63,520 nucleotides of DNA, filler included, from 5 parts of 5 records of this genome joined end to end with filler, not necessarily neighbours in it, one strand, 5' to 3'; counted from the first letter of the whole stretch, positions 1-25,446 are shown. Notes: generated by a model from the sequence alone, not told the origin. Numbers and translations: made by a program.

Positions 1-54
1 TGGTGCGACCGACGAGACTTGAACTCGTACACCCGAAAGCACCACCCCCTCAAG
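1..54 (-). pseudogene. 3' half of host tRNA-Leu(GAG), from anticodon loop to CCA, separated from its 5' half by the element
   Basis: Minus strand reads CTTGAGGG GGTGG TGCTTTCGGGTGT ACGAG TTCAAGT CTCGT CGGTCGC ACCA (variable arm, T-arm, acceptor 3' strand, CCA). Sequence beyond position 55 is not tRNA-like. Confidence 0.92.
47..54 (+). repeat. att core, left junction (CCCTCAAG)
   Basis: Identical to 15897-15904; covers the 7-nt anticodon loop plus one stem base. Confidence 0.88.
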
Positions 55-93
55 TTGGAATGCTATCCCTAAAAAAGGGCTTTGTAAGCCAAC

Positions 94-111
94 TGAGAAA
101 ACGATGAGAAA
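94..111 (+). repeat. Putative integrase arm-type sites (TGAGAAA x2)
   Basis: TGAGAAA at 94-100 and 105-111; the same tandem recurs near the right end at 15691-15709. Confidence 0.5.
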
Positions 112-129
112 TTTAAACTTAGTTAAACC

Positions 130-1275
130 TTATGCCATACTAATTAAAGCATTAAATATATCTGCTTTATTTTTGGCTTTTTCTTGCTTGTGATTATCTT
201 CTAAACAATCTAAATTATAGTGTTCATCCGTAATTCTTGAACCTTTTGAGTGTCCTACAACTTCTTGAATATCCTCAAGTGAAACTTTATCAGATTGCCT
301 CATCATACTTACATAAGTTCTTCTCATTGCATATAATGTTTTATACTCAACTTCAATCACTTTTAAAAACGGTTTGAAGTGATAATCTGTAATAGTTTTT
401 GATTCTTTAAAAGGCTTTCCATTTTTTGAAATAAAAAGCCATTCTTTAGACATTCTAAAAGTTTTAAACCTTTTTAATAAATCAATTGTTTCAGGGAAAA
501 GGTATATTTCTCTTAAGTGATTTTTATTTTGATGAATAACTTCACTTGATTCAGTAATTACACCTTTCGAGATACTTCTATTTATTTGAAAGAAACCTCT
601 TTCTAAATCAAAATCATCCCATTTCAGACCCATAGCTTCACCTGTTCTTAGTCCATATTTAATAGATATTTCAAGAAAAATCTTTAACCATCCTTCAGAT
701 TCATTTAACATTTTTTTTACTTCTGAAACTGTGTAAGCTTGTGTTGTCTTAACAGTTTTCTTAAATTGATGCTTTTGAACAATTCTTGCTCTAACTATAT
801 TTTTTTTCATTAAGTCTTCATCATGAGCAGTTTCTAAAATATTACATAGAATATTTTTTATTCTTTTACATCTATCATAAGAATATTTTTCTGTAACTGA
901 ATTAAAAAACTCAAGTAAATTTAAAGAAGTAATATCGTTAAATTTGAACTCTTTAAAATAAGGGACTATAATTCTCTCTAAGATTCTTTCATACTCTTTT
1001 TGAGTTTGAATGCCTCTGTTATAAGAATCACTTCTTAAAACTCTAAGTCCAAAATCTTCTAAACTAAATTCATTGTTTGAATCATCTTTTATATTTAAAA
1101 TATTTAAAAGAACTTGTATAGGGTCTTGCTTTTGCATCCATTTTTTATTTAATGGAGTGGCTTTTTTACCTATACTTTTTTTGTATGTTTTTCCGTTAAT
1201 TGTACCTTGTACATAAATCGCATTAGATTCTTTTCTTATGTAAAAAGAACCATTACTACAAAATAACTTACTCAT
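130..1275 (-). CDS. Tyrosine recombinase/integrase of the element
   Basis: GLRTGEA (catalytic R), YAMRRT (HxxR variant), VGHS and HY motifs; adjacent to att. Confidence 0.93.
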   Translation of the reverse strand: MSKLFCSNGSFYIRKESNAIYVQGTINGKTYKKSIGKKATPLNKKWMQKQDPIQVLLNILNIKDDSNNEFSLEDFGLRVLRSDSYNRGIQTQKEYERILERIIVPYFKEFKFNDITSLNLLEFFNSVTEKYSYDRCKRIKNILCNILETAHDEDLMKKNIVRARIVQKHQFKKTVKTTQAYTVSEVKKMLNESEGWLKIFLEISIKYGLRTGEAMGLKWDDFDLERGFFQINRSISKGVITESSEVIHQNKNHLREIYLFPETIDLLKRFKTFRMSKEWLFISKNGKPFKESKTITDYHFKPFLKVIEVEYKTLYAMRRTYVSMMRQSDKVSLEDIQEVVGHSKGSRITDEHYNLDCLEDNHKQEKAKNKADIFNALISMA

Positions 1276-1519
1276 CGTTATTGCCTCCTATTATTGATAA
1301 TAATTGAAGTGCAACTTTTTTCGACATATATATTTTACCACCTTCTTTCCAAAAATCGGTTTCAGGTTCATAATTGTTTATTAGATTAGCTCTAACACCT
1401 TGTCTTGTCATTCCTGTTTTTTCGCATATAAAAGAAATTGCTATTTTGCTCGGGAATAAAGAGTTAAATAGATTTCTTTGCTCCAATAACATTTTTTTTA
1501 TTTCATATAATTCCTTCAT
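1268..1519 (-). CDS. Small HTH-like protein, possible excisionase/recombination directionality factor
   Basis: 83 aa from MKELYE with RBS AAAGGA; overlaps the integrase start; HTH-like ICEKTGMTRQGVR. Confidence 0.55.
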   Translation of the reverse strand: MKELYEIKKMLLEQRNLFNSLFPSKIAISFICEKTGMTRQGVRANLINNYEPETDFWKEGGKIYMSKKVALQLLSIIGGNNDE

Positions 1520-1538
1520 TTGGTTTTCCTTTCGTTCC

Positions 1539-1573
1539 TCAGCCATCGAGGGCTTTTTGTATTAACTCCTTAA
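1539..1573 (-). repeat. Duplicated leader motif, copy 1
   Basis: TTAAGGAGTTAATACAAAAAGCCCTCGATGGCTGA; near-identical copy at 2036-2071. Confidence 0.7.
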
Positions 1574-1603
1574 GTTAAAATTGTTAGCTTTTTACAGCAC
1601 CAG

Positions 1604-1625
1604 TAAGAAGAGTTTCCTCTTCTTA
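1604..1625 (-). terminator. Hairpin after the 1623-2015 gene
   Basis: TAAGAAGAG-TTTC-CTCTTCTTA, a perfect 9-bp stem; weak U tract. Confidence 0.4.
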
Positions 1626-2015
1626 TCTTAATAGTAATTTTGCTTTTTTTAATTCTTTTTCAAATTGATTAAAATTCATACTTTTAATTAATAAAATAAG
1701 ATAAATCTGTACAGTATTAGACAAAGGTCTTATTTTTCTAAGAATATCTTTTTCTAATTTTTCAGGCTCTCCAAATTGTGATAACATCATAAACTCATAT
1801 TGAATTGCTTCTTTAAAATAACTTTGTATAAAGTTATCAATTTTGAAAGCTGCCATAGGGATATAAGTATCAAAAAATACACAATATAAAGCCCCATATT
1901 CTTCTACTGTAAGATTTGTTTTTCTAATTGATTCTATAATCACCTTTTTATCTTCATTTACTAATTTTTCATTAATTGTTTTTAGTGTAATTACCACATT
2001 TTCGTTGTTAAACAT
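1623..2015 (-). CDS. Hypothetical protein
   Basis: ORF with RBS AAGGAG before MFNNEN; no motif recognised. Confidence 0.6.
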   Translation of the reverse strand: MFNNENVVITLKTINEKLVNEDKKVIIESIRKTNLTVEEYGALYCVFFDTYIPMAAFKIDNFIQSYFKEAIQYEFMMLSQFGEPEKLEKDILRKIRPLSNTVQIYLILLIKSMNFNQFEKELKKAKLLLR

Positions 2016-2035
2016 TTTTTCTCCTTTTTCAGTCA

Positions 2036-2071
2036 TCAGCCATGAGAGGGCCTTTTGTATTGACTCCTTAA
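2036..2071 (-). repeat. Duplicated leader motif, copy 2
   Basis: TTAAGGAGTCAATACAAAAGGCCCTCTCATGGCTGA. Confidence 0.7.
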
Positions 2072-2199
2072 TTTTTTAAATTTAATTAAAACCAGTTACT
2101 TAAATTTAGTCACTATAAAATTCATTTAATGAATAAATTTCCACCTTTTAACCATAAAAAATAGTTAAAAAAATTGGGAAGCTTTCACTTCCCGAAAAA

Positions 2200-2667
2200 T
2201 TAAAAACCATTTTGAATCATTTTATCTACATCAGAAGGAATCCTCTTAATTCTGCTGTTTTCTTCTTCTAATTCAATTAATGTTTTTAATTGTCTTAAAT
2301 GAGTACAGAATTGTAAAACTTCTGCATATGTTTCTTTTCTTTCATTTTCATAAAACTTTTCTCTATCTTTTTTTCCGTAATAGAAAAGTTGCTTTTTAGT
2401 TTTTTTTACTTTTTTAGCTCCAATAATATCTTTTCCGTCTTTTTTAGGAGAGGGGATAACAATATTTTCATCATATAATTCTTCTTTAAAATTACCATAT
2501 ACTTTAAAAATATGTTTATTTGCATCTACCATCGGAGTAACTCTATCAAAATTAAAAACTAATTGTTCCAATGTAAATTTTAACCTATGCTTTTCTATAA
2601 AGTTTTCACAAAACTGAATCATATCATTAATGTATGTTTCATCTATATTCAAGTTTATTTTGAACAT
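2200..2667 (-). CDS. Hypothetical protein
   Basis: 155-aa ORF with RBS TAAGGA; followed by a GGGAAG/CTTCCC hairpin at about 2174-2196. Confidence 0.65.
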   Translation of the reverse strand: MFKINLNIDETYINDMIQFCENFIEKHRLKFTLEQLVFNFDRVTPMVDANKHIFKVYGNFKEELYDENIVIPSPKKDGKDIIGAKKVKKTKKQLFYYGKKDREKFYENERKETYAEVLQFCTHLRQLKTLIELEEENSRIKRIPSDVDKMIQNGF

Positions 2668-2842
2668 ATAAAGTCCTTATTTTAATTTTTAACAATAAAT
2701 TGTAAAAGTTAACCTATGGATAGATTAACACACACGATTAAGCTATAAAAACTTAATCAACATTGAAACTATAACTTAGATTTTATTAAAACTTCCTTAA
2801 GGGTATAAAAAAATACAAAAATATATTTTTTTATACTGTTTA

Positions 2843-2851
2843 TGTTAAAAT
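2843..2851 (+). promoter_or_regulatory. Extended -10 promoter (TGnTAAAAT) for the kinase operon
   Basis: TGTTAAAAT about 30 nt upstream of ATG 2881. Confidence 0.45.
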
Positions 2852-2880
2852 ATCATTTACTATTATAAAAGTGAGTATAA

Positions 2881-4449
2881 ATGGAAGTAAATATAATAAA
2901 GAAATTATCAGATTATTTAAAAAATAATGATTCTATTGAGAATAGTTTAGGAAAGTTTATCTTAGGAAAGCAGCTGGGACAAGGTGGTACATCAGTAGTT
3001 AGAGAGGCGACTTTGAATGAAAAAGCATCATATGCAATTAAGTTTTTAACTGAAAATATAATATCAAAAGAATCAAAGGCTTATCTTCGATTTAAGCAAT
3101 CATATATAAATATACTTTCAATTCAGGATACAGGGGTAGTTCTTCCTCAAATTTATTTTGATAATATAAAAATAGATGAATATACTGTAATTCCTTATTC
3201 TATAATGTTAAAAGCTGATAAAACTTTAAAAGATGTTGTACATGAAAAAGAAATGAGTTATGAAAGATTTGAGAAAATATTTAATTACTTAGTACATATA
3301 ATAGGGACAATCCATAAGTATAATATTATTCATAGAGATTTAAAACCTGAGAATATATTTTTAATTAATAATAAACTAGTTCTAGGAGATTTTGATATTG
3401 CAAAGTTTAATGATACAGAGCACATTAAATTTCACGAAACAAAAAGTAATGAACGACTTGCAAACTATCAGTTCTCCGCACCTGAACAGTCAGTAAAAAA
3501 GTTTGAAGAAATTGATGAAAGGGCAGATTTATTTGCATTAGGACAAATTTTATACTGGCTTGTAACAAAAACAACTCTTAGAGGACAAGAATCAATTAAT
3601 TTAAAAGGCTATGATACTAGATATAGAAAGTATGAGGAATTAATTACTAAGCTATTACAAAATGAAAGGGATTTAAGGTTTTTAAATGTTGGAGAAATAG
3701 AACAGTTTTTAAAACAAAAAGATAGACATAGGCAAGAACAAGAAGAGATTTCTAAATCTTTTAAAACTTTAAGATTATTTGATGAAATAATTGATAAATA
3801 TGCACATGACAAAAGTTATCGAAGTTTTAAAAAAATTGAAAGTATAGATATAATTAATGAAATAATGACTGATTTATCAAGCCAGTTTAAAGAGATGAGA
3901 TTATGGTGGAGCCAAGGAACAAGAGATAACGAAATAGAGAAAATTGAAAAGTATGTGTCTTTATCTTTAAAGGAAAAAGTGATTGATAATTGTATAAAAA
4001 ATACAAAATGGATAGTTGATTGTTTTGAATTTTCAATAAAAAGTATTTGGATATATAAATATGGTGATGTTGGTGCAAGTACAATAATTATTGAAACGGA
4101 ACCACTTAAAACTTTTGGCATTTATGATGGAAAATATGATTCAGAGGAAGTTGCGATATTTAAAAATAAGTATATTTCAAGAAGACATTACGACAACGGT
4201 TGGACTGAAATAAAAGGAAAAAAAGTTAGAATAGATTCGCCTTGTGAAATAAGAGTTAGACACTTATATAGTGATTTGTTCTTTATATCTCCTTATGATG
4301 GGTCAATAATTTCTAATGACCAAACAAGAACAGAATTAATTCTTTTAGATATTTATAATCAACATAAAAAAGGTACAACTTTAGATGAAAATTTACTTGC
4401 ACCAATAAAAGAGTTTAGAAGAAAATCAAAAATTGCATTATGGAGTTAA
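2881..4449 (+). CDS. Hanks-type Ser/Thr protein kinase with an uncharacterised C-terminal domain
   Basis: LGQGGTSVV, YAIK, HRDLKPEN, DFD (for DFG), SAPEQ and ADLFALG motifs. Confidence 0.93.
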   Translation: MEVNIIKKLSDYLKNNDSIENSLGKFILGKQLGQGGTSVVREATLNEKASYAIKFLTENIISKESKAYLRFKQSYINILSIQDTGVVLPQIYFDNIKIDEYTVIPYSIMLKADKTLKDVVHEKEMSYERFEKIFNYLVHIIGTIHKYNIIHRDLKPENIFLINNKLVLGDFDIAKFNDTEHIKFHETKSNERLANYQFSAPEQSVKKFEEIDERADLFALGQILYWLVTKTTLRGQESINLKGYDTRYRKYEELITKLLQNERDLRFLNVGEIEQFLKQKDRHRQEQEEISKSFKTLRLFDEIIDKYAHDKSYRSFKKIESIDIINEIMTDLSSQFKEMRLWWSQGTRDNEIEKIEKYVSLSLKEKVIDNCIKNTKWIVDCFEFSIKSIWIYKYGDVGASTIIIETEPLKTFGIYDGKYDSEEVAIFKNKYISRRHYDNGWTEIKGKKVRIDSPCEIRVRHLYSDLFFISPYDGSIISNDQTRTELILLDIYNQHKKGTTLDENLLAPIKEFRRKSKIALWS

Positions 4450-4450
4450 A

Positions 4451-5725
4451 ATGAAAAAAGCTTTTTTAATTGGTGCAGGTTTCTCTTATGATTTAGGTAT
4501 GCCATTAGCATTTGAATTGACTGAAACTTTTTTAAGTTTGTTTACTAAAAGAAGTGTTGAAACTTTCTGTAATGTTCTTTCAATGAATAACCCTTATGGA
4601 AATGAAAGACCTATTAATAAAACTGCTCTTAAAGAAGCACTTACAATGCTTCTAGAGTATAAAGAGAACAATGGAAATAATTATGAAGAGATTTTGTCAA
4701 ACATACAAGATTTAAGAAATAATCATGAAAAAACTTTATCTGACAAAGATTCATACAGTTATGTATTTTCTATTATGTATGATATTATTTGGCAAATACT
4801 ATACTTGTATCAAGTTAAATCTTATGAATTAATTTATGAAAAAAATAAAGAATTTTATAGAAAGATTGAAGATTTATTTGGAGAAGAAGAGTGTTGGATA
4901 TTTTCATTAAATCATGATTTATATGTTGAATTATTAGCATTAGATTTTAAAATACCCATTTCTTATGGAGATACTGATTCTATAATATTCCCTTTAAATA
5001 ATATAGATAAAAACACAAAGATAAATTTTAGCTATACCCTTAATGATAATTTCTTTAAAGAAAAAATGAATTTCCATAAAAAAAACAAAAGTATTAATCT
5101 CGTGAAGTTACATGGTGGTTTAGGAGAGTTTGAATATAAAGACAAAAAGTTACAATGTAATTTAAGTCTAGATAATAGAGAATCTTCTTTTGAGTTAATA
5201 AATGATTTTAAAAACTATAACAATATGGCATATTATCACAATGGAGTTAAAGTACCTAGTGGAAAAGATAGAGTAGTTACTAATAGTTTAGGAGAATTAG
5301 ACATTATTGTAAAATCAATGCTAACTGGTGGAAATAAGTATAGTAAAACATCAAATGAAAAAAAGGGTGAAGAAAAGCTTAAAATTTTTAGTGATATTTT
5401 AACAGAAATTGATGAATTAACTGTAATAGGATATGGTTTTGGAGATAATCATATTAACTTTAGATTATCAAATGCAATGGTTTTAAATCCTAATTTATCA
5501 ATCAGCATAATTGAACCTATGAACATTAATACCCCTGATATTTTAAATCAATTTGATTATGACAATAGAGTAAAAAAGGCAATGTGTACAGCTACACAAT
5601 GGTTTAATTACTATAAAGAAAAAACTTGGAATCAAGATTTAAATAAATCAATTATAGATAATAATGAGCTTAGAAATAAGATAAAAAGTGAAGTATTAAA
5701 TTCCTTGTATAAATTGAATAGATAG
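4451..5725 (+). CDS. SIR2-like (SIR2_2 type) protein, putative NADase effector
   Basis: FLIGAGFS, SLNHD, KLHGG and IGYGFGDNHIN motifs; ATG lies 1 nt after the kinase stop. Confidence 0.88.
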   Translation: MKKAFLIGAGFSYDLGMPLAFELTETFLSLFTKRSVETFCNVLSMNNPYGNERPINKTALKEALTMLLEYKENNGNNYEEILSNIQDLRNNHEKTLSDKDSYSYVFSIMYDIIWQILYLYQVKSYELIYEKNKEFYRKIEDLFGEEECWIFSLNHDLYVELLALDFKIPISYGDTDSIIFPLNNIDKNTKINFSYTLNDNFFKEKMNFHKKNKSINLVKLHGGLGEFEYKDKKLQCNLSLDNRESSFELINDFKNYNNMAYYHNGVKVPSGKDRVVTNSLGELDIIVKSMLTGGNKYSKTSNEKKGEEKLKIFSDILTEIDELTVIGYGFGDNHINFRLSNAMVLNPNLSISIIEPMNINTPDILNQFDYDNRVKKAMCTATQWFNYYKEKTWNQDLNKSIIDNNELRNKIKSEVLNSLYKLNR

Positions 5726-5735
5726 AAAGGCTTTT

Positions 5736-7100
5736 ATGAAAACACCAACTATACCAAATGTGACTAATTTACAAAATGGTGAGATAATAAAATCTATAGA
5801 TTTTTTTAGTATGGATGAAGAGTCTATATTTAAAATTAGAACAGAGAATGAAAAGTACTTACAGAAAGATATAAAGTTTTTAGTATGTTCTCTTTGTCAT
5901 CAATCAGTAAAAATACGGGGTGGTATCGATAAGTCAAAGAGCTTACATTTTTCACATCTTCATAGTTCAGGAGATTGTCCAATTAAAACTGGACAATCTT
6001 ATACTACGGAAGAAATCAATGCAATGAAATATAATGGGGCGAAAGAAAGTGAAGAACATAAAAAATTAAAAAACTTTATCTATGAAATGCTTTCAAAGGA
6101 CAATAATTTTTCTAATACTGAAATAGAAAAAACATTTAAAAATACAGGTCTTCAAAAGAATTGGAAACGACCAGATGTTTCTACTAACTTTAAAGGTCAG
6201 AATATTGTTTTTGAAATACAATTATCAACTACTTTTCTAGATGTGATTGTAAGTAGGCAAAATTTCTATTATGCTAATAATACTAATATCGTATGGGTTT
6301 TTAATAAATTTCCAAAAGATTTATCTAAATTAAGATTTACAGAAAAAGATATTTTGTACTCAAATAAGAATAATGTTTTTGTTCTTGATGATGAAATGAT
6401 TGAGAAGTCTATAAAAGCTAATGCACTTATTTTTAAGTGCTATTATATGAAGATAAATCCTGAAAAAAGTAAAGGAAGTAAAATAGAAACTTCATGGGAA
6501 CATGAAGAGGTTAATGTAGTTGATATAACCTATGATGAAATTACAAATAAAAGCTATATCTACAATTATGACTCAGCAAAAGCAAGACTATTGTTTGAAA
6601 AGAAATTGAAGAAAATAAACCCTATGTATTCATTAATATTAGATGGTATTAAAGAGATTGAATTAGAAGGTCGAAGATACGATTGGAATTTATCTAATGT
6701 ATTAGACTCAACTTATTTTGATTATTTTGACCCATTTTCCTTAGAGGAACTTGTAGATGCACAAGAACTAATAGGCTTTTTATTGACTATTCTTTTTTAT
6801 GGTAGAAAACAGGAACGAGACTATGAATCAAGGTATCGAAGTTCAGATGGATATTTCATTAGGCTATTAAATCACATGATAGATTATAGAAAAGAGCATA
6901 TGGATATTTTATTAAGAGCTATTGATACATATGACAAGAGATTGATGATTCTTAACAATGATAAAAAAGGTAAGTTTAGAGAAAGACTTATTGAATATAA
7001 AAAAGATACACCCATACAGTCAAACAAGCATGATAAAGTATTGCAGTTTTTATTTCCTGAGCTTTTTTATAATATGGGGATACCTATAGTAAAAAAATAA
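5736..7100 (+). CDS. CoiA/DUF6035-like Zn-ribbon PD-(D/E)XK nuclease
   Basis: CSLC...HFSH...CP zinc motif; ESEEH; RPDV...FEIQLS nuclease core. Confidence 0.8.
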   Translation: MKTPTIPNVTNLQNGEIIKSIDFFSMDEESIFKIRTENEKYLQKDIKFLVCSLCHQSVKIRGGIDKSKSLHFSHLHSSGDCPIKTGQSYTTEEINAMKYNGAKESEEHKKLKNFIYEMLSKDNNFSNTEIEKTFKNTGLQKNWKRPDVSTNFKGQNIVFEIQLSTTFLDVIVSRQNFYYANNTNIVWVFNKFPKDLSKLRFTEKDILYSNKNNVFVLDDEMIEKSIKANALIFKCYYMKINPEKSKGSKIETSWEHEEVNVVDITYDEITNKSYIYNYDSAKARLLFEKKLKKINPMYSLILDGIKEIELEGRRYDWNLSNVLDSTYFDYFDPFSLEELVDAQELIGFLLTILFYGRKQERDYESRYRSSDGYFIRLLNHMIDYRKEHMDILLRAIDTYDKRLMILNNDKKGKFRERLIEYKKDTPIQSNKHDKVLQFLFPELFYNMGIPIVKK

Positions 7101-7119
7101 TTACTACAAGATTTAGCTT

Positions 7120-7155
7120 AAAGCAATATGAAATTTACAAACATATTGCTTTTTC
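7120..7155 (+). terminator. Intrinsic terminator closing the kinase-SIR2-nuclease operon
   Basis: AAAGCAATATG...CATATTGCTTT 11-bp stem ending in a T run. Confidence 0.55.
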
Positions 7156-7399
7156 TCTCAATAATGGAATGGAAATAATTCTAGCTACTTATAACAAGGT
7201 ATGAAAGCTTTACGAAGCTATAACTTTTAAAACAGGAGCTACGAATGAATACACTAACAGAAGTGCTACAAACTTGTAGCAACTTATGACAATTCTTAAT
7301 ACAAAATCTTTTTTGATAATACAAAGCTAAAAGTATTATTCCAAAAAGAAATATGAGTGGCATCATATTTTTGTATTACTGAATTGAGACCCCGAGGGA

Positions 7400-7443
7400 G
7401 CTTCCATCTCTATTGCATATTTTCTGCAATAGAGATTGGAAGC
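7400..7443. other. Long inverted repeat, candidate oriT or recombination site
   Basis: GCTTCCATCTCTATTGCA-tattttc-TGCAATAGAGATTGGAAGC (18-bp stem with one bulge). Confidence 0.45.
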
Positions 7444-8129: not shown

Positions 8130-8133
8130 GATT

Positions 8134-8994: not shown

Positions 8995-9005
8995 AAAAGA
9001 GAGTT

Positions 9006-10001: not shown

Positions 10002-10151
10002 GGCTATCCTTTTTTATTGATGTAAGATTATATATCGTAATTCATTATAAAGATATTTCAAATAAATTAATTTTAACCTAAAAAGGTATACCTTTCCAGA
10101 TCCAAAGTGTATACCAAAAAGATTACACAAAAGAAATTTTAAAATTTTTTA

Positions 10152-10172
10152 TTTTTGGGCTTAATTAATTTT
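10152..10172 (+). repeat. 21-bp element, inverted copy of 12966-12986, upstream of a -10-like box
   Basis: TTTTTGGGCTTAATTAATTTT is the exact reverse complement of 12966-12986. Confidence 0.75.
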
Positions 10173-10219
10173 TAAATCTATGTCAAAATATATACATAAT
10201 TAAAACAAAGGAGCATATT

Positions 10220-10390
10220 ATGAAAATAGAAAAAAAAGAGTTAAGAGATGCAGCAGTTACAACAAAGCTTACAAAATCTCAAAAGGAAAAAATAGAAGAG
10301 TTATCAAAAGAGTATGATATAACAAGGTCAAATTTGTTAGCACAGCTTATTATGGAGGGATATAAACAAGCTACATCAAAAGAGTTATAG
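10220..10390 (+). CDS. Ribbon-helix-helix (CopG-like) protein, 56 aa, absent from the ORF track
   Basis: RBS AAGGAG; MKIEKKELRDAAVTTKLTKSQKEKIEELSKEYDITRSNLLAQLIMEGYKQATSKEL. Confidence 0.75.
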   Translation: MKIEKKELRDAAVTTKLTKSQKEKIEELSKEYDITRSNLLAQLIMEGYKQATSKEL

Positions 10391-10420
10391 CTAGATAACT
10401 ACTAGCTATTCTTTTATATT

Positions 10421-11269
10421 TTATGTTAATTGCCATTCCATATTTTCAAGTTTTGCACTATATATTCTTTCAATAAAACCAAGTTTTTCATAAAATTCAA
10501 TCAAATCTTTATTATCAAAATATTTATCTAAGAAATTGAATAGTCTGACAAATTCTTTAGCTCTTAATTCATTCTCTTTATTTGGAGCTTCGAATGTATG
10601 ATAAATAAAATCTAAACTGTTAATTGAAATCCCAAAACCACAACCTGAATTATCACAACAATAACATTCTCCTAAACTATGTCTATTTTCAGATATACAC
10701 CATTTACAAGCTCCTTCTCCTCCATAAGAAGAACAGTCTTCTAATGATACATATCCTCCTCCATATTCAGGACATGTGATTATTGATAATGAATCAGCCA
10801 TAGTTGCTCCACAAAAAGGACAACTACCATTTGAATAAAATTCAAGAAAACTTTCACTTACAGGTTCTATTTCTTGATTTGATTGTTGAGCGATTTTTAA
10901 TAATGATTGATATAATATTAAAGAACTTGTAAATTTATCTGTCTCAAATAAAACACTAGATTCACCTTCTTTTATTTTTTTAGGTTTATATAGATTTTGT
11001 GAACCAATAATAATTGTATTATCAATTAAATATATTTTGCCATGATAAAAGTCTTTATCAATTTTTATGCATTTTTCAGATGGAACAAAGTTACTATCAT
11101 TTCTTGATAAAAAGTAATAGAAAACATTTTCTGGAATAATTGATTTATAATGAATATAATCACTTCTTCCCCAATATGCAGAAGCTAAGAATACTCTTTC
11201 TTTTGCATTTTTAATTAAATCATCTAAAATATCCCAGAATTCACTACCATAAATCATTTTTATTTTCAT
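10421..11269 (-). CDS. Phospholipase D-family (HKD) nuclease with a Cys-rich C-terminal domain
   Basis: YHGKIYLID...IGSQN motif; CPFC, CKWC and CYCC clusters. Confidence 0.8.
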   Translation of the reverse strand: MKIKMIYGSEFWDILDDLIKNAKERVFLASAYWGRSDYIHYKSIIPENVFYYFLSRNDSNFVPSEKCIKIDKDFYHGKIYLIDNTIIIGSQNLYKPKKIKEGESSVLFETDKFTSSLILYQSLLKIAQQSNQEIEPVSESFLEFYSNGSCPFCGATMADSLSIITCPEYGGGYVSLEDCSSYGGEGACKWCISENRHSLGECYCCDNSGCGFGISINSLDFIYHTFEAPNKENELRAKEFVRLFNFLDKYFDNKDLIEFYEKLGFIERIYSAKLENMEWQLT

Positions 11270-11322
11270 AATATTACTTTCTTATTTAAAATACTAGAGT
11301 TTATCGTATAAAATATAAAAAA

Positions 11323-11457
11323 TTAATCTTCATCATCACTAAATAAGTACCACCAAAATATCCACCATTTTAATTCTTCATCTTCTGAATTTAAAAACCA
11401 ATTCCAAATAATCAAATAAAAAACTGACAATCCAATAGTCACAATTAATAATTCCAT
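11323..11457 (-). CDS. Small Trp-rich membrane peptide, 44 aa, absent from the ORF track
   Basis: MELLIVTIGLSVFYLIIWNWFLNSEDEELKWWIFWWYLFSDDED; RBS AAGG; fills the gap between two co-directional genes. Confidence 0.55.
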   Translation of the reverse strand: MELLIVTIGLSVFYLIIWNWFLNSEDEELKWWIFWWYLFSDDED

Positions 11458-11486
11458 TTTAAAGCCTTTATAGAGTAGCTAGTAAA

Positions 11487-11954
11487 TTAACTAGCTATTT
11501 TCCTTTTATTTTCTTTTTTCAAAGTCTCACAGCCATATTTAGCCTTTATATCGTCCATAGATTTTTGCTTTGGATTTCTGCCTTTCATTTCTCCGTAGTA
11601 CCACATCTTTTTTTTAGAAGCCCATTTAAAACCAAGCTCTTTTAATTTTTCTTTGATTTCTTTAGTATCTCCACTAACCCATATCCAAGAACCAACAAGC
11701 TCGATAGTAATATTTTCAAAGTGTAAAATAAGACTTATGATTTTTTCTAACTCTATATCTATTTTAATATCATTAGAGAAATAGATTTTATGCTCTATTA
11801 AATCAGTATAAACACTATTTAAAGTCTTAAACTCTTCTTCACTACCTCCAATGTCAGGATGAAGCTTTTTAGCTAATTTCTTATAGATTTTCTTTGCTTC
11901 ATTGATACCCTCAATACCTCTAAATTCATTTTGAATTTCTTCTTTTGTCATCAT
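11487..11954 (-). CDS. J-domain (DnaJ-like) protein of the mobile-element type
   Basis: YKKLAKKLHPDIGG (HPD motif); C-terminal GSWIWVSGDT...LGFKWASKKKMWY domain. Confidence 0.85.
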   Translation of the reverse strand: MMTKEEIQNEFRGIEGINEAKKIYKKLAKKLHPDIGGSEEEFKTLNSVYTDLIEHKIYFSNDIKIDIELEKIISLILHFENITIELVGSWIWVSGDTKEIKEKLKELGFKWASKKKMWYYGEMKGRNPKQKSMDDIKAKYGCETLKKENKRKIAS

Positions 11955-12008
11955 CTTAAATCCTTAAAATTGTTTTTGCCTTTTTGAAGATTCAGAGGGT
12001 TTGTTTTT

Positions 12009-12302
12009 CTCTTCTTTTTTAAATTTTAAGAAGTAAAAAAACTTAAGCTCTTTTTCTTTTAGGCTTTTGCCTCTTCGTTAGTTCATCGGGCTTTTTATGG
12101 ATTGTAATGATTAGCTTTTTACTTAGAGAAAAATAGAAATTAGAAGTATGAGGATTTTATTTTTATATCAGTAAATAAGATAATAAAGTGAAATGAGAGA
12201 AAAAGACTGAACTAATGAAGAGAACTAGCAAAATTAAAGAATAAAGTGTGATTAAAAGTTTTTCTTCTGTTGAGTAACAAAAATTTAAAAACTAAAGAAG
12301 AG
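12009..12302. promoter_or_regulatory. ~290-nt imperfect fold-back, candidate ssDNA promoter or single-strand origin
   Basis: Nested complementary blocks, e.g. 12009-12016 with 12295-12302 and 12071-12085 with 12208-12222. Confidence 0.55.
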
Positions 12303-12965
12303 TTAATATTTATTGATTTTAAATCAATTCAATTTCCAATTTTCGAGATTTTATATAAATCTAATAGTATACTATTATTATTTAATCCATTTCTGTCTAA
12401 GTATCAAATTCTGATTCACATAAACAAATTTCCGATATGTTATATTGAGGAAAGCTTTGCTTTTCTTTATTTATGTGAATGCAGAATTGCCCTATCGTAA
12501 AAGTACAATTCAACATAAACTGCCTAAAAACCTATGATTCAAAGATTTTTATATTATTTGATTAAATAAATTAATACATAGCAAGACGGCATCCCTTATC
12601 TCACTACAATGTTTCCATTAATAATAGAACTGCCTGTATCCTCTTCTTTAATAATACAAATGCGGGCATCTCCTGTGAACCCTAAAACCACCTACACAGG
12701 AACCATTGTCTATTTCCAAGCTATAAAGAACTAAATGTTCTCTTTCTTCAACCCATATCTTAGATAAAAGACTTAGGAGAGGACTTGGCACACCATTTAA
12801 AATGATGAAGATTTTTTTTGCATACAAAAATACCTTTGAGTCAATATGCCCTATTATAGAAGAGGTGACATATTGAGATATTTCTAGCTCTTTTAAAAAA
12901 TCTCAAAAAAAGCTTTTCATTTCAATCTATATTCCAATAGATAAAGTAATTATAAACCAAATTAG

Positions 12966-12986
12966 AAAATTAATTAAGCCCAAAAA
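12966..12986 (-). repeat. 21-bp element, inverted copy of 10152-10172, 11 nt upstream of a minus-strand TATAAT
   Basis: AAAATTAATTAAGCCCAAAAA; ATTATA at 12949-12954. Confidence 0.75.
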
Positions 12987-13020
12987 GGTATAAATTTCAA
13001 AATTTGTTAAAAGTTTAGAT

Positions 13021-13266
13021 TTAGTCGTCAAATTTGACTTCTAAATCTTCCCCTTGTATTACTTGAACTTCTTCCTTTTTCTCTTTCTCATCATCTAATA
13101 ATGAGCCTATCCCATAGATTGTGCCACCAGTTACCATTCCAAATGCAACACCAACAGGATGTCCACTTGCATGATTAGTCGCTAAGTTTCCACCAAATTT
13201 CTTCATTTGCTTTCCACTACAACCACTTAATGCAAGTAGTATCAAAATAGCTAATAGATATTTCAT
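13021..13266 (-). CDS. Small lipoprotein with a glycine-zipper-like segment
   Basis: Lipobox LSGC; GVAFGMVTGGTIYGIG. Confidence 0.75.
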   Translation of the reverse strand: MKYLLAILILLALSGCSGKQMKKFGGNLATNHASGHPVGVAFGMVTGGTIYGIGSLLDDEKEKKEEVQVIQGEDLEVKFDD

Positions 13267-13267
13267 A

Positions 13268-14197
13268 CTATTTATTAACTACTGATTTAATATAAGCTTT
13301 TAGCTGTGCAATATCTTTTTTATTAAAAGTTTCTCTTGAACTTGTAGAAACCATATACTTAATATTTGAACCATAAAGAACTTTTGAACCACCTCGATAT
13401 GGATATACTGCAAAACTAACTGGAATACCTACTTTTGAACCATTTACATTTTTATATAATACTGCATATATTTTTCCATTCTTTAACCTATAAAAGTGAT
13501 TACCTACAAATTGGTCTTTATCATTCCATTTAATATATTGACTTTTTAAACCTTTGAATAATACTCCATTATATCTGCTTCGCATCCAGTTACCAAATGT
13601 TGTTTCAAGATTTGTCTTAACTTCTTGCGGTGGTAGCTTTGAGATTACTTCTCCTGTAACTGTTACATCATTCTTATAAAAGTACATATCATCTAATCGT
13701 TGGAATGTTACTTGTGCATCATCGTTATATTCTTGAAGCACTTTATTTATTTTCATAGAGAATAATCCGCCTTTTTTTCTAAACTCAAAGTTATCTCTAT
13801 AAGTTAAGGTAATAGAGTTATCAGACTTATTTATCTTATAGTCATAATAAAATGTCATAAAGCCATCTCCACCACTTAGAACAATTTTATATGAAGTAGG
13901 AGTTTTAACTACACTATCTACATAATGGTCTTGAATTTTTACTTTTAAAAGCCAATCTATATCTTTACTAAAGTCATAAGTTGTAATGTCATACTCATTT
14001 GAAGCTTCACCATTAAAATCTGTTTTAGGTAATTTTAGAGTGACTGGCTTGTAATACTGTGAGTTTGTTTTATAGTTATCTACTTGAACCCTATCAAATG
14101 CTTTTGACTGCTTGATTTGTGCATTGTTTGCACAGCCACTAAATAAGACTGTTGCTGCAACAACTGCTACTGAAATTTTTACTATTTGGTTTTTCAT
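13268..14197 (-). CDS. Lipoprotein of unknown function
   Basis: Signal peptide with lipobox FSGC; RBS GAGGA. Confidence 0.8.
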   Translation of the reverse strand: MKNQIVKISVAVVAATVLFSGCANNAQIKQSKAFDRVQVDNYKTNSQYYKPVTLKLPKTDFNGEASNEYDITTYDFSKDIDWLLKVKIQDHYVDSVVKTPTSYKIVLSGGDGFMTFYYDYKINKSDNSITLTYRDNFEFRKKGGLFSMKINKVLQEYNDDAQVTFQRLDDMYFYKNDVTVTGEVISKLPPQEVKTNLETTFGNWMRSRYNGVLFKGLKSQYIKWNDKDQFVGNHFYRLKNGKIYAVLYKNVNGSKVGIPVSFAVYPYRGGSKVLYGSNIKYMVSTSSRETFNKKDIAQLKAYIKSVVNK

Positions 14198-14241
14198 TTA
14201 ATATCCTCTCAATAAATAATCAAAAAAATTTTAACTAATGT

Positions 14242-14276
14242 TACCATAGGGTATTATTAAATATTACCAATAGGTA
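14242..14276. promoter_or_regulatory. Twin palindromic operators TACC-N4-GGTA
   Basis: TACCatagGGTA at 14242-14253 and TACCaataGGTA at 14265-14276, between divergent genes. Confidence 0.6.
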
Positions 14277-14308
14277 TTATTATTTTACTAAAATTATTAG
14301 GACTAATA

Positions 14309-14560
14309 ATGTTAGTATCAGAAACTACAGAAGAAGAATCAAATAAATTTCATCAAAATATTTCAAAAAATGTAAGAAGAATCAGGAAAGAAAAACTATT
14401 GACTCAATTAGATGTGAGCCTTGCACTTGGTTTTTCAAACCCTTCATTTGTCACTAATGCAGAATCTGAGAAGTCAGATAAAAAGTTTAATTTGAATCAA
14501 TTACATAAACTATCTATTATCTTTGATGTTAATATTTGTGAATTTTTCAAGGATGATTAA
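14309..14560 (+). CDS. XRE-family HTH regulator
   Basis: VRRIRKEKLLTQLDVSLALGFSNPSFVTNAE...LSIIFDV. Confidence 0.88.
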   Translation: MLVSETTEEESNKFHQNISKNVRRIRKEKLLTQLDVSLALGFSNPSFVTNAESEKSDKKFNLNQLHKLSIIFDVNICEFFKDD

Positions 14561-15588
14561 TGAGCTTTTTTGATTTATTTAATGCAAGAATGTGGATTTT
14601 CTTTTTTGCACTTTATACAATATTTCTTTCTCGTTATTTCTTATCAAATGACATTCCTATACAATTTGATTCAAATATTTTTGTACTTATAGTTTTTTTC
14701 CCTATTCTCATTTTAATATTTGGTTTTTGTCTATATTTATTTTGTGGAATGATAGAGAGAGGATTTAGATTAAAGTATAATATTAAAGATGAAAGAGAAG
14801 ATAAACTTTTTAAATCTTTTGATGTATTAATGCCATACTTTGCTCCATTTATATTAATTATAGAATTGTTGAATATGAATGAAGAAAATATAAAACATAT
14901 GACATATTTAGTAATATCTATCCCCGCTTATTTATTTATTTTAATTGTAATATATTTAATATATAAAAAATTCAAAAATAAAAAAGCCATTTACATAAAC
15001 TCAATAATAATACCCTTATTCTTTTTTTACAGTATATTTAATGAGTTTGGTGCAATGCAAGTCTTTTTAATGTTTTTAGCTTTCTCAGGTTTTATCGCCT
15101 ATTTATATATTTATAAAAATGAAGAGTATGTTGCAGATAAGTTAAAGCTAGATTTTAAAAGTTCATATTTATATGAATATTTAAAGAGAAATACAGTTGA
15201 AGAAAATGGAATGATTTCTTTAATTATTCACTTTATTAATAGGTTCAATCTTTTCTTTTTGGCATTGAGCATTTTAATTCTTTTTTCATTATGGGACTCT
15301 ACTTTTAATAAAGCAAAAGTAAACGACTTTTTAACAAATTTTGTTTTAAAGACTACAAAAATAGGCTCATATAAAACTAGTCTTGTTATAGACAAAAAAT
15401 TAGTAACTGAGTTTGAAGAAAAAGCTTATAATAAAAATGAAGAAACTTTTACTATTGATGTAGATGTTATTTGGGAAAATGAAAAAGATATTTATATTAA
15501 ATATAATTCAAGAAGTATAAAAATACCACAAGAAAATGTACTTATGAATAAATACATAATCAATAAAAAGAATGAGAAAAAAGAATAG
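14560..15588 (+). CDS. Polytopic membrane protein of unknown function
   Basis: About 7 hydrophobic segments; TAATG coupling to the XRE gene. Confidence 0.75.
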   Translation: MSFFDLFNARMWIFFFALYTIFLSRYFLSNDIPIQFDSNIFVLIVFFPILILIFGFCLYLFCGMIERGFRLKYNIKDEREDKLFKSFDVLMPYFAPFILIIELLNMNEENIKHMTYLVISIPAYLFILIVIYLIYKKFKNKKAIYINSIIIPLFFFYSIFNEFGAMQVFLMFLAFSGFIAYLYIYKNEEYVADKLKLDFKSSYLYEYLKRNTVEENGMISLIIHFINRFNLFFLALSILILFSLWDSTFNKAKVNDFLTNFVLKTTKIGSYKTSLVIDKKLVTEFEEKAYNKNEETFTIDVDVIWENEKDIYIKYNSRSIKIPQENVLMNKYIINKKNEKKE

Positions 15589-15690
15589 TTTTGTTTTTCT
15601 CATAAGAATATAGCTCTAAATACTATATATTGGTACTTTATGAGCTTATATTAAGTTTTACATAAGAATAAGAGATTTTATAAAAGAAAA

Positions 15691-15709
15691 TGAGAAAAAA
15701 AATGAGAAA
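15691..15709 (+). repeat. Putative integrase arm-type sites (TGAGAAA x2)
   Basis: TGAGAAA at 15691 and 15703; an inverted TTTCTCA at 15596-15602. Confidence 0.45.
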
Positions 15710-15776
15710 ATGAGTTACCATTTAGTTGTCATAATGGTAAAAAATTGTCGAAAAAAGTTGATTCAAAAATTTAAAG

Positions 15777-15864
15777 TGGTGCGACTGAAAAGACTCGAAC
15801 TTTCAAGCTCATATCGAGCAGCAGGCCCTCAACCTACCGTGTTTACCAATTTCACCACAGTCGC
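15777..15864 (-). tRNA. Element-encoded complete tRNA-Leu(GAG), 88 nt
   Basis: GCGACTG/CAGTCGC acceptor, D-loop AAATTGGTA, GTAGG-TTGAGGG-CCTGC anticodon arm, GCTC/GAGC variable arm, GTTCGAGTC T-loop, encoded CCA. Confidence 0.93.
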
Positions 15865-15896
15865 ATTTTAACAATTCTAAATTTACTATTTTCGTT

Positions 15897-15935
15897 CCCT
15901 CAAGATGGCGTGTCTACCAATTTCACCACGGTCGC
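15897..15935 (-). pseudogene. 5' half of host tRNA-Leu(GAG), including the right att core 15897-15904
   Basis: GCGACCGTGGTGAAATTGGTAGACACGCCATCTTGAGGG, then non-tRNA sequence; pairs with the stems in 1-54. Confidence 0.92.
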
Positions 15936-15951
15936 AATTTTAAAGAGCGAA

Positions 15952-25445: not shown

Positions 25446-25446
25446 A

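Follow-up and report, generated by a model that had tools for sequence, protein, structure and literature searches.

How does a bacterium keep its tRNA-Leu(GAG) when an integrative element has split the gene and neither junction rebuilds it? The question arises from a 63,520-nt stretch of DNA (hereafter the window), which consists of five unrelated contigs, with GC contents of 26%, 50%, 48%, 53%, and 64%, joined by N/TTAATTAATTAA spacers. The split gene is confined to contig 1 (window 1-16292), which holds an integrated 15.8-kb island of an Arcobacteraceae bacterium. The first-pass annotation had proposed that this island supplies a whole replacement tRNA instead of repairing its target, and our analysis supports that proposal in the window and in relatives. 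We place the probability of the whole reading, in which the island splits the single tRNA-Leu(GAG) at the anticodon loop and replaces it with a tRNA carried on attP, at about 0.82.

The split host gene and the complete element tRNA

The relevant features are as follows.

1-54, minus strand: displaced 3′ half on the attR side, covering the host tRNA-Leu(GAG) from its anticodon loop through CCA (assigned by sequence comparison and stem pairing)
47-54: attR copy of the 8-bp common core CCCTCAAG, i.e., the anticodon loop plus one stem base
15777-15864, minus strand: complete element tRNA-Leu(GAG), 88 nt (ARAGORN; Rfam RF00005, 49.8 bits)
15865-15896, minus strand: 32-nt spacer between core and element tRNA, with a -10-like TAGAAT (15879-15874) 9 nt before the tRNA
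15897-15935, minus strand: dead 5′ half of the host tRNA-Leu(GAG) on the attL side, with its core copy at 15897-15904
15936-16292, minus strand: host flank; a TATAAT box at 15957-15952 precedes the tRNA by 16 nt, a hairpin occupies 16005-16031, and 16017-16292 is the 3′ end of a chemoreceptor-like gene

The two halves overlap only in the 8-bp core CCCTCAAG (plus strand). Joined in silico through this core, they yield an 85-nt tRNA-Leu(GAG) in ARAGORN, and the acceptor and anticodon stems that span the break are paired at 12 of 12 positions between them. The 5′ half matches that of the intact tRNA in a relative with an empty site (G088) at 39 of 39 positions. It is followed by the spacer, with no 3′ half behind it. 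Island sequence that would regenerate the target is absent, as identity at the junctions ends after 8 bp. ARAGORN found no tRNA on the attR side alone (1-300) and, in a scan of the whole window, none at either island junction; Rfam returned no match at either half at E ≤ 1. Against this, the attR junctions still score 30-40 bits with the Leu model, versus 81-98 bits for intact genes. The coordinates of the split, its 8-bp overlap, and the failure of both junctions to rebuild a tRNA, all claimed in the first-pass annotation, agree with ARAGORN, Rfam, and alignment, as does the recovery of an intact gene on in-silico excision.

The sole tRNA that ARAGORN detects in the whole window is the 88-nt Leu(GAG) within the island. 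Rfam identifies the same single tRNA, at 49.8 bits versus a gathering score of 29. It begins 32 nt past the dead 5′ half on the same strand, where it had first been placed. Its identity is 85% to the resident tRNA of genome G103 and 72% to a stand-in for the window's host tRNA. When 20 tRNAs (13 element-borne, the window's included, and 7 resident) were aligned on the cloverleaf, all 400 of 400 stem cells were paired, changes on both sides occurred in 16 of 20 pairs, and none of 500 shuffles reached the observed score. Element tRNAs are structurally constrained, with the cloverleaf preserved. The dead halves are free to mutate: one displaced 3′ half (L015) has a mutated anticodon loop.

A TATAAT or TAGAAT 7-9 nt upstream of the element tRNA is also present in G127 and G118. 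We note that the promoter scan was not above chance (3 found versus 1.9 expected).

Recurrence and copy number in the Arcobacteraceae

We searched 184 family genomes with a degenerate pattern that describes the Leu(GAG) 5′ half, using the reversed pattern as a control. Matches were obtained in 160 of the 184, mostly one each, and the control gave 0. Pairs or triplets of matches 49-93 nt apart occur in 16 genomes, to which G150, G151, and G127 add three. The split-tRNA layout therefore has at least 19 carriers among the 184 Arcobacteraceae genomes, each of the 19 with a host 5′ half, a spacer, and a full tRNA-Leu(GAG) in that order.

The integrase side was approached through homologs of at least 43% identity, 14 from the 184-genome family search and 3 from a 401-genome sample of the order. 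All 17 are accompanied by CTTGAGG and a dead Leu 3′ half 62-97 nt beyond, and a complete tRNA-Leu was found at the integrase side in 0 of 17. The far end, wherever it was found, consists of a host 5′ half, a spacer, and a full tRNA-Leu(GAG). At one locus (L016), host tRNA-Gly and tRNA-Arg genes lie downstream of the integrase-side junction.

Excision in silico produced a tRNA-Leu(GAG) in 13 of 13 cases run, both ends being known in each. Cognate halves are paired at 12 of 12 acceptor and anticodon stem positions in 14 of 14 pairs, compared to a mean of 9.77 among 172 non-cognate combinations, 22 of which reach 12. The 14 hosts with both ends known have eight different acceptor stems. The same element tRNA stands behind different host 5′ halves in G119 versus G122 and G123. 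The element tRNA has itself been re-targeted, leaving stacked dead halves.

These data bear on the reading that an ordinary restoring island has been misread, with the full tRNA being a hybrid of host 5′ and element 3′ parts and the upstream 5′ fragment an unrelated pseudogene. Restoration is the general rule for tRNA-targeting islands in the part of the Islander report that treats it (PMC4383910), which is what would recommend such a reading. However, the acceptor and anticodon stems of the full tRNA match each other and not the host halves, the supposed pseudogene pairs perfectly with the integrase-side 3′ half in all 14 genomes, and one and the same element tRNA lies behind differing host 5′ halves. 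We consider a misread hybrid scarcely credible.

Relatives with empty sites show what the locus looks like before integration. G088 has an intact tRNA preceded by a promoter stretch similar to that of the window, and in G085, G089, and G061 a chemoreceptor gene is followed, after about 100 nt, by one intact tRNA; this gene order (chemoreceptor, then tRNA-Leu(GAG)) is conserved in relatives. Each of the four has one intact tRNA-Leu(GAG). A second copy beside it, which the first-pass annotation had named as a refutation, was not seen in any of them.

The layout might instead come from a chimeric contig 1, joined by the assembler at tRNA-like repeats. The first base of contig 1 is the CCA end of the 3′ half, so the contig holds no host DNA to the left of that half; host flank on the right amounts to 357 nt (15936-16292), and linkage of the 3′ half to the chromosome would follow from the relatives only. 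Matches to the tRNA 5′ half also occur in several other contigs of the sample, which end close to the core, and the window is itself a concatenation of contigs. A public run with one 16292-nt contig identical to contig 1 may be the source of contig 1 and so gives no independent support for the layout. Contigs of independent runs carry parts of the element and reach 27-30 nt into the junction cores, less than the 31 needed for bridging; those from another study's run take element sequence into both cores. Against a chimera, the 8 bp common to the junctions are too short to mislead an assembler, and the layout recurs in five complete genomes and more than 12 other assemblies. An assembly artefact is thus very improbable.

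To assess copy number, we counted matches of at least 55 bits to the Leu model. All 5 of the 5 complete genomes that bear the element have a single tRNA-Leu(GAG) gene, that of the element, and their other matches are Leu(TAG), Leu(TAA), or Leu(CAA); a single-copy GAG isoacceptor, which the first-pass argument for host dependence requires, was thereby borne out. All five also have a tRNA-Leu(UAG) gene, which could read some CUN codons and partly cover a loss of GAG. In G107, the tRNA at the junction has decayed and a divergent 93-nt Leu(GAG) lies 21 kb away, indicating that the junction copy is not always the one that is kept.

The element tRNA might accordingly be dispensable, the cell living on tRNA-Leu(UAG) and the full tRNA being a mere passenger or a structural leftover of attP. 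The universal presence of Leu(TAG) in the complete genomes and the decayed copy in G107 would fit this, as would the 24 of 184 genomes without a pattern match, though many of these are incomplete. We nevertheless judge dispensability distinctly unlikely. A GAG gene, mostly single-copy, is present in 160 of 184 genomes; every element examined has an intact, compensated cloverleaf next to dead halves that are free to mutate; G107 retains another Leu(GAG) nearby; and in the published phage system, as described in part of PMC10865867, the phage tRNA is required for survival. We favor a replacement tRNA on which the host may depend.

The integration module, the cargo, and the carrier

The remaining features of the island are as follows.

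78-111, minus strand: terminator-like hairpin (78-90) and TTTTCTCA-type repeats (94-101 plus an adjacent near-copy) between the integrase stop and the core; putative arm-type sites
130-1275, minus strand: tyrosine integrase, 381 aa (Pfam PF00589, 2.1e-12)
1268-1546, minus strand: gene for a small 92-aa protein that overlaps the start of the integrase; candidate excisionase or DNA-binding factor (tblastn)
2881-7100, plus strand: variable defence-like cargo, comprising a Ser/Thr kinase (2881-4449), a SIR2-like protein (4433-5725), and a DUF7830/DUF6035/CoiA-like nuclease (5736-7100) (Pfam, PADLOC)
7181-15588: further variable cargo, including a weak PLD-like match (10421-11269), a DnaJ-domain protein (11487-11954), and a small HTH regulator (14309-14560)
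15691-15740, minus strand: putative P-arm sites just past the 3′ end of the element tRNA, made up of TTTTCTCA repeats (15691-15698 and 15703-15710) with a 26-nt inverted repeat (15715-15740)

The integrase at 130-1275, which would recombine attP with attB, has relatives of 82-83% identity in two Arcobacteraceae MAGs. In an attP of the lambda type, the core has arm-type integrase binding sites to either side. Repeats of the TTTTCTCA type flank the core on both sides (94-101 and 15691-15710), at places that match in relatives: a doubled motif recurs by the integrase, and the inverted repeat with a doubled motif is conserved near the element tRNA. These repeats are candidate arm-type integrase sites of attP, although the motif count is not above chance across the window (8 found versus 8.8 expected).

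The 92-aa protein is the only window ORF besides the integrase that is matched in most of the related elements compared. A tblastn search of 13 loci recovered it at 38-62% identity in 11 related loci of 10 genomes. It has no Pfam match; its nearest Atlas clusters are HTH_17/MerR-like DNA-binding proteins (scores of 0.90-0.94), which we take as a lead only.

PADLOC matches in the cargo are to PD-T4-6/Stk2 (4.7e-31) and SIR2 (9.3e-12). The defence-like genes at 2881-7100 have no counterpart in the related elements compared, and 16 of the 19 window ORFs have no match there at all, the exceptions being the integrase, the 92-aa protein, and the small HTH regulator. This distribution is consistent with a minimal integration module whose cargo can be swapped.

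Phage structural or conjugation genes were not recognised at 7181-15588. More broadly, capsid, tail, terminase, portal, and lysis families were absent from the 19 element and 3 flank ORFs scanned by Pfam and from the 10 ORFs scanned by PHROGs. The carrier therefore looks like a non-phage island with defence-like cargo. Were it instead of phage origin, whether as a temperate phage, a satellite, or a degraded prophage, the case would be tRNA-dependent lysogeny strictly as published. Every published case concerns a phage or prophage, and several properties lean that way: many cargo ORFs lack a recognised family, the DnaJ-domain ORF matches the phage family phrog_15863 (6.5e-38), the small HTH matches phage regulators, some related elements are as large as 42-48 kb, and a parallel tRNA-Leu(CAA) element in G002 has Rad52, Gp157, and DUF932 genes. 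However, a tailed phage of 15.8 kb would be small, such cargo as could be recognised is defence-like, and both the absence of virion, packaging, and lysis families from the scanned ORFs and the integration module with swappable cargo count against a phage. We regard a phage-derived carrier as unlikely, though with enough in its favor to be weighed, and treat the element as an apparent non-phage island.

Proposed mechanism and relation to published systems

We hypothesize that the integrase recombines attP with the host's single tRNA-Leu(GAG) gene at its anticodon loop. Because identity between attP and attB is limited to about 8 bp (the loop and one base of the stem), a tRNA is rebuilt at neither junction. 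The complete tRNA-Leu(GAG) would be part of attP, separating the core from putative arm-type sites, and after integration its transcription would be driven by the host tRNA promoter, by the -10-like box of the element tRNA, or by both. Once aminoacylated, it would replace the lost GAG isoacceptor. Precise excision, if the element is still mobile today, would rejoin the halves into the native gene. Since only the anticodon loop must match, one element family could enter hosts whose tRNA-Leu(GAG) differs in every stem, hosts in which the usual hybrid tRNA would be mismatched.

Williams, in Nucleic Acids Res in 2002, is said to have defined an anticodon-loop class of sites in which attP carries the whole tRNA 3′ part from the loop onward. 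The window shares with this class a crossover core at the 7-nt anticodon loop, with the symmetric anticodon stem on either side. It differs in that identity between attP and the tRNA stops after the loop.

The first-pass annotation knew of no described case, which is wrong: tRNA-dependent lysogeny has been published (Guerrero-Bustamante and Hatfull 2024, PMC10865867), with experiments on the actinobacteriophages Fionnbharth, LeBron, Gaia, and others (mBio 2024). The mechanism proposed here is that one, in an apparent non-phage island. As far as the part of that report bearing on each point goes, the likenesses are a tyrosine integrase with attB inside a single-copy host tRNA gene, a core (8-17 bp in the phages, 8 bp in the window) from which no tRNA is rebuilt, and close integrase relatives that can use other tRNA targets; Gaia itself has a tRNA-Leu-CAA target and an 8-bp core. 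The same portions indicate several differences. The published carriers are temperate phages of Actinobacteria, whereas the window element is in Campylobacterota and its phage genes were not recognised. The Fionnbharth tRNA lies elsewhere in the genome, overlaps a protein gene on the opposite strand, and has its own tested promoter; the Arcobacteraceae element tRNA lies inside attP, 24-55 nt beyond the core, and is co-oriented with the host promoter. Among the phages, restoring integrases are interspersed with non-restoring ones, whereas all 17 integrases of at least 43% identity are non-restoring here, as judged from the integrase side. Finally, function was demonstrated experimentally in the phages, and the window element is known from sequence alone.

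Two prophage systems are also close. Lj965 of Lactobacillus johnsonii disrupts a tRNA gene and carries a cognate one (PMC10865867, PMC3714127), and in Sinorhizobium meliloti, Lo5R7ANS-like prophages that interrupt tRNA-Leu(UAG) likewise carry a cognate tRNA (PMC11476347, PMC12429752). In both, the tRNA gene is broken centrally, and the element tRNA of the same kind is closer to those of other taxa than to the host's. Unlike the present family, these are prophages of other phyla that use other tRNAs, described in few genomes and, in the relevant sections of these reports, without a family-wide survey.

Canonical tRNA islands, as defined in part of the Islander report (PMC4383910), share the tyrosine integrase, the tRNA target, and a displaced 3′ fragment at the island end; in the window, the displaced half at 1-54 marks that end and adjoins the integrase. 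The window island departs from the definition in not restoring the target gene at the junction. A tool that expects a regenerated tRNA and a matching fragment would mistake the element tRNA for the target, and the 3′ half of the element tRNA does not match the displaced fragment as a restoring-island tool would expect.

What is new here is an apparent non-phage carrier with defence-like cargo, in Campylobacterota; a replacement tRNA inside attP next to the core and behind the host promoter; and the re-targeting of the element tRNA that leaves stacked dead halves. An apparently non-phage island family with a replacement tRNA is common across the Arcobacteraceae.

A split tRNA-Leu(GAG) and its replacement on contig 1

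The GC content of the window rises from 0.25–0.28 to 0.47–0.63 near position 16,000, and reading the sequence at this jump revealed N runs around a TTAATTAATTAA linker. A script resolved the window into five contigs separated by four such joints. As the contigs differ in GC content, they probably represent different organisms of one mixed sample. The island and the split tRNA lie entirely within contig 1, which agrees at every one of its 16,292 bases with a contig of a public sequencing run (X1), its possible source. X1 was the best match among the DNA runs, and no RNA run was listed as containing the sequence.

Contigs, joints and main features of the window
1–16292, contig 1, GC 0.26 (0.263)
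16393–36217, contig 2, GC 0.50
36318–48341, contig 3, GC 0.48
48442–58174, contig 4, GC 0.53
58275–63520, contig 5, GC 0.64
16293–16392, 36218–36317, 48342–48441 and 58175–58274, joints (N runs around TTAATTAATTAA)
54–1, minus strand, displaced tRNA 3′ half, from the anticodon loop through CCA
130–1275, directed towards the 3′ half, tyrosine integrase (PF00589, 2.1e-12), stop codon 75 nt from the core
15777–15864, minus strand, complete 88-nt tRNA-Leu(GAG), the element tRNA
15935–15897, minus strand, host tRNA 5′ half, ending in the anticodon loop

ARAGORN called a single tRNA in the window, the 88-nt element tRNA, which also matched Rfam RF00005 at 49.8 bits (cut-off 29); Rfam returned no other tRNA-like match at E ≤ 1 in 1–16292. 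No tRNA was called in the attR region alone (1–300; ARAGORN, by script) or at the attL junction in the whole-window scan. The two halves share the same anticodon loop, overlapping by 8 bases, and when joined in silico through this core they yield an 85-nt tRNA-Leu(GAG) whose break-spanning acceptor and anticodon stems are 12/12 paired. The complete tRNA has the orientation of the dead 5′ half and lies 32 nt beyond it; its stems match each other, not the host halves. The first-pass annotation had described a tRNA-Leu(GAG) split in two, with a whole replacement gene inside the element; its coordinates and description were correct by ARAGORN on the region and on the excised locus, by Rfam and by in silico rejoining.

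Contig 1 begins at the last base of the tRNA, so that host DNA is absent on that side; the other side retains 357 nt. This start may reflect a branch in the k-mer assembly graph at a tRNA-derived repeat. Several other contigs of run X1, at depths of 82–1368, match the tRNA 5′ half (window 15897–15940) and end a few bases from the core; several related strains or tRNA variants, branching at the core, are probably present in the sample. In X2, a run from another study, contigs stop 27–30 nt into the cores, and none counts as bridging. Among 15 of the 19 read-run joints, none corresponded to precise excision (54 joined to 15897) or to a circle joining the two element ends. A joint in run X3 that links 29 to 15908 through 28 other letters is the intact tRNA of another organism.

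Uninterrupted sites are found in related genomes. An intact tRNA-Leu(GAG) in G088 shares its first 39 nt with the window's 5′ half and has a similar promoter stretch; its 3′ half differs from the window's only in the variable and T loops, and there is no second tRNA in the 700 nt examined. The right flank of the island is the end of a chemoreceptor-like gene, and in G085 (82% identity), G089 and G061 such a gene ends about 100 nt ahead of a lone, intact tRNA-Leu(GAG). None of these four relatives carries a second tRNA already beside an intact one, the scenario named in the first-pass annotation as refuting its disrupt-and-complement reading.

To count tRNA-Leu(GAG) genes, we ran a covariance model (R1) of 13 element-borne and 7 resident genes on five complete element-bearing relatives, rather than on the window's own genome. 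G010, G014, G017, G127 and G151 are complete genomes that bear an element. The element copy was the best match in four and the second-best in the fifth, and ARAGORN assigned all 18 other matches of at least 55 bits to Leu(TAG), Leu(TAA) or Leu(CAA). The element gene is therefore the sole tRNA-Leu(GAG) gene in 5/5 complete relatives, in line with the earlier supposition of a single-copy isoacceptor. Each of the five also has one Leu(TAG) gene, which might read some CUN codons; host dependence on the element tRNA is therefore likely, not proven.

Recurrence of the split layout in Arcobacteraceae

A scan of one genome per prokaryote species placed the closest integrases, at 82–83% identity, in an Arcobacter sp. 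MAG and an Arcobacteraceae MAG. Both have the integrase, about 75 nt, CTTGAGG with the 3′ half of a different tRNA-Leu(GAG), and then host DNA, and ARAGORN found no tRNA at either integrase-side junction. The matching 5′ halves lie on other contigs of these two genomes, and beyond each, across a 44-nt spacer, comes a full tRNA-Leu(GAG). An exact search for the window's own two halves gave 0 matches in three relatives' loci, whose host tRNAs differ.

Within the family, the integrase is matched at E ≤ 1e-20 in 60/184 genomes and at ≥43% identity in 14/184. All 14 of the latter integrases are followed, 62–97 nt past the stop codon, by a CTTGAGG-type loop and a Leu 3′ half, with no complete tRNA-Leu beside any of them (0/14). 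At one such locus (L015, G181:C115) the former anticodon loop of the dead 3′ half reads CTTGCGG, the kind of change that a dead copy, no longer constrained, should accumulate. An order-level sample (401 genomes) added three further integrases with the same layout on this side. The proposal that homologous integrases each accompany a split tRNA therefore holds for the dead 3′ half in all 14 family cases and these three. A 42%-identity integrase from the order sample (L094) has no tRNA-like sequence within 230 nt downstream. More distant integrases (35–39%) adjoin partial or whole tRNAs with a CAT anticodon. At three such loci (L027, L095 and L096, in G144, G194 and G237) the integrase precedes the 3′ part of a CAT-anticodon tRNA, from the loop and in integrase orientation, and no complete tRNA was called nearby. 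A Nanopelagicaceae locus (L003, 21% identity) was set aside as unrelated.

For the far end, we took the 20 kb upstream of nine related integrases. Six of the nine stretches contain one full tRNA-Leu(GAG) in integrase orientation, each lying behind a host 5′ half that stops in the loop, with a spacer of 32–44 nt between them. A degenerate 21-mer representing the end of the Leu(GAG) 5′ half matched 160/184 family genomes, nearly always once, while the reversed pattern, used as a control, matched 0. Two or three matches 49–93 nt apart occur in 16 genomes; with G150, G151 and G127, the split layout is present in at least 19/184 genomes, all 19 read at the sequence level, a count that leaves out G164, G166 and G181 (two matches each). 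G011, G048 and G143 have two matches in other arrangements. Element sizes, from coordinates, range from about 10 kb (G014) to about 48 kb (G127). In the latter genome (L016, G127:C1, ~471.7–471.9 kb), tRNA-Gly(TCC) and tRNA-Arg(TCT) follow the displaced 3′ half, and this tRNA order indicates that the 48-kb insertion severed a host tRNA operon from its promoter.

In all 14 cases with both ends in hand, the window included, the halves pair 12/12, and in silico excision yielded a tRNA-Leu(GAG) in 13/13 run. The 14 hosts have 8 different acceptor stems, and 172 non-cognate half combinations average 9.77 pairs, 22 of them reaching 12. This recurrence and the pairing of the halves exclude assembly artefact as a general explanation, and five carriers are single-contig genomes of 2.0–2.9 Mb.

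Some genomes hold more than one layer. In G151 (L050, G151:C1, ~766.5 kb), two tandem dead 5′ halves stand ahead of the element tRNA; the first is the host's, and the second is identical to the 5′ half of the element tRNA, with the same spacer. Such tandem halves could have arisen by a duplication of 71 nt, or by a second integration into the element tRNA with a later deletion. G107 (L055, G107:C1, ~1518.2–1519.0 kb) has a host 5′ half, then a 5′ half from the tRNA of a different element, then a third tRNA-Leu(GAG) that is decayed in its T stem and acceptor end. Downstream of this stack, at a distance of 21 kb, is a 93-nt tRNA-Leu(GAG) of divergent sequence (L097, 1495.5–1499.5 kb), and no integrase of this family was found in G107 at ≥43% identity.

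Other layouts were also observed. In G011 (L063/L064, G011:C8, 114.1 kb and 119.8 kb), the host promoter and a tRNA-Leu(GAG) up to the T loop are followed, after 5.7 kb, by an identical tRNA that is intact, as if the element here provided the 5′ rather than the 3′ part. G048 (L066, G048:C1, ~2790.3 kb) retains a decayed sequence resembling tRNA-Leu(GAG), which ARAGORN does not call; it has a spacer and downstream inverted repeat typical of Leu(GAG) elements and is therefore probably the remnant of an old insertion. In G002 (L006/L089, G002:C60) and G001 (L011, G001:C30), the 5′ part of a host tRNA-Leu(CAA) is cut just past the anticodon loop, and a complete tRNA-Leu(CAA) follows about 100 nt later. 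Judged by this layout, these loci are a second case of split-and-replace. The G002 element carries Rad52, Gp157-like and DUF932 genes and thus looks prophage-like; its integrase and 3′ half were not found within the 9 kb to the contig end.

The element tRNAs show structural constraint. In a 20-sequence alignment of element-borne and resident tRNAs, 400/400 stem cells are standard pairs, and 16/20 stem pairs show changes on both sides. The observed score was reached by 0/500 shuffles, and sliding the stem partners lowers pairing to 34–54%. The window element tRNA shares 85% identity with the one tRNA-Leu(GAG) resident in G103, a gene with neither an integrase nor a tRNA fragment within about 4 kb, but only 72% with a sequence standing in for the tRNA of its own host. 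The G010 and G014 elements carry a tRNA that nearly matches the host tRNA split in G001. Given their stem pairing and these identities to other species' tRNAs, the element tRNAs seem to be host genes of other species that were captured and have stayed intact.

Attachment site and cargo

The predicted circular form would read, in order, integrase stop, a doubled TTTCTCA-type motif, a hairpin, a short stretch, the core, the spacer, the full tRNA, a 26-nt inverted repeat and further TTTTCTCA motifs. Relatives show this order too, and in some of them the short stretch before the core still looks like the D-to-anticodon portion of a tRNA. We regard the TTTCTCA-type and TTTTCTCA motifs as putative arm-type sites: their placement and conservation are suggestive, and they are no more numerous than chance predicts (8 found, 8.8 expected across the window), so we infer this function rather than assert it. 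A -10-like box lies 7–9 nt ahead of the element tRNA (TAGAAT in the window, TATAAT in G127 and G118), and a host TATAAT, read by eye, lies 16 nt ahead of the dead 5′ half. Either could drive the element tRNA; a promoter scan, with 3 sites found against 1.9 expected, is not evidence.

Only 3 of the 19 window ORFs were matched in related elements: the integrase, a 92-aa protein that overlaps the integrase start (11/13 loci searched, in 10 genomes, 38–62% identity) and a small HTH protein (three related loci, 35–38% identity). In the Atlas, the 92-aa protein neighbours small DNA-binding proteins of the HTH_17/MerR-like type, a lead towards a putative excisionase. The cargo comprises a PD-T4-6/Stk2-like kinase, a SIR2-like protein, a CoiA-like nuclease with DUF6035 and a weak PLD-like protein, and the scanned ORFs yielded no recognisable virion, packaging, lysis or conjugation family (Pfam, PHROGs). 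Three adjacent same-strand genes at 2881–7100 encode the PD-T4-6/Stk2-like Ser/Thr kinase, the SIR2-like protein and the DUF7830-DUF6035-CoiA-like nuclease. The trio may form a candidate composite defence system and is absent from the related islands compared.

tRNA-dependent lysogeny and possible turnover of tRNA-Leu(GAG)

The first-pass annotation knew of no described case of disruption with complementation. Comparison supports the mechanism well, but it is not undescribed: it has been published as tRNA-dependent lysogeny (Guerrero-Bustamante and Hatfull, mBio 2024, PMC10865867). According to that article, attP and attB have about 10 bp in common, so the host tRNA stays unrebuilt, with experimental proof for tRNA-Lys in Mycobacterium smegmatis. 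Further actinobacteriophages are listed there, including Gaia (tRNA-Leu-CAA, 8-bp core); prophage Lj965 of Lactobacillus johnsonii is given as a likely case outside this group, where the authors state that prevalence needs investigation. Lj965 is also mentioned in a review (PMC3714127), and Sinorhizobium prophages are described as inactivating tRNA-Leu(UAG) and carrying a cognate gene (PMC11476347, PMC12429752). Among the papers listed by a search of titles and abstracts, with subscription journals outside its coverage, none reports tRNA-dependent lysogeny in Arcobacter or Campylobacterota or for a non-phage island. By this comparison, the split-tRNA finding is real and is not a new principle.

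The island differs from these phages in several respects. It has no recognisable phage genes and comes from a distant phylum; its whole integrase clade is committed to replacement; its tRNA sits within attP beside the core and lands behind the host promoter; and, in relatives, element tRNAs seem to have been re-targeted themselves (G151, G107). The recent finding is thereby widened to a distant phylum, to islands without recognisable phage genes and to about one-tenth of species-representative family genomes (at least 19/184).

We propose, with a probability of roughly 0.4, that the islands may be vehicles for horizontal replacement of a tRNA gene. Each island would carry a tRNA-Leu(GAG) captured from another species; once integrated, the element tRNA would become the next attB, and the islands would therefore stack. 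Island decay may then leave the foreign tRNA as the host's sole copy. The stacking in G151 and G107 hints at islands driving tRNA-Leu(GAG) turnover across the family, supporting this without proving it.

The layout also suggests why these elements forgo target repair: if only the anticodon loop must match, hosts with divergent stems become accessible. Island finders that expect a regenerated tRNA and a matching fragment will misplace the boundaries of these islands, and in many Arcobacteraceae genomes the "native" tRNA-Leu(GAG) is element-borne. If the proposal is true, the tRNA would be an anchoring device that penalises every deletion except precise excision, a testable idea, as a deletion at the island's junction end also loses the sole GAG isoacceptor gene. 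It would also account for a tRNA-Leu(GAG) that differs in every stem across one family.
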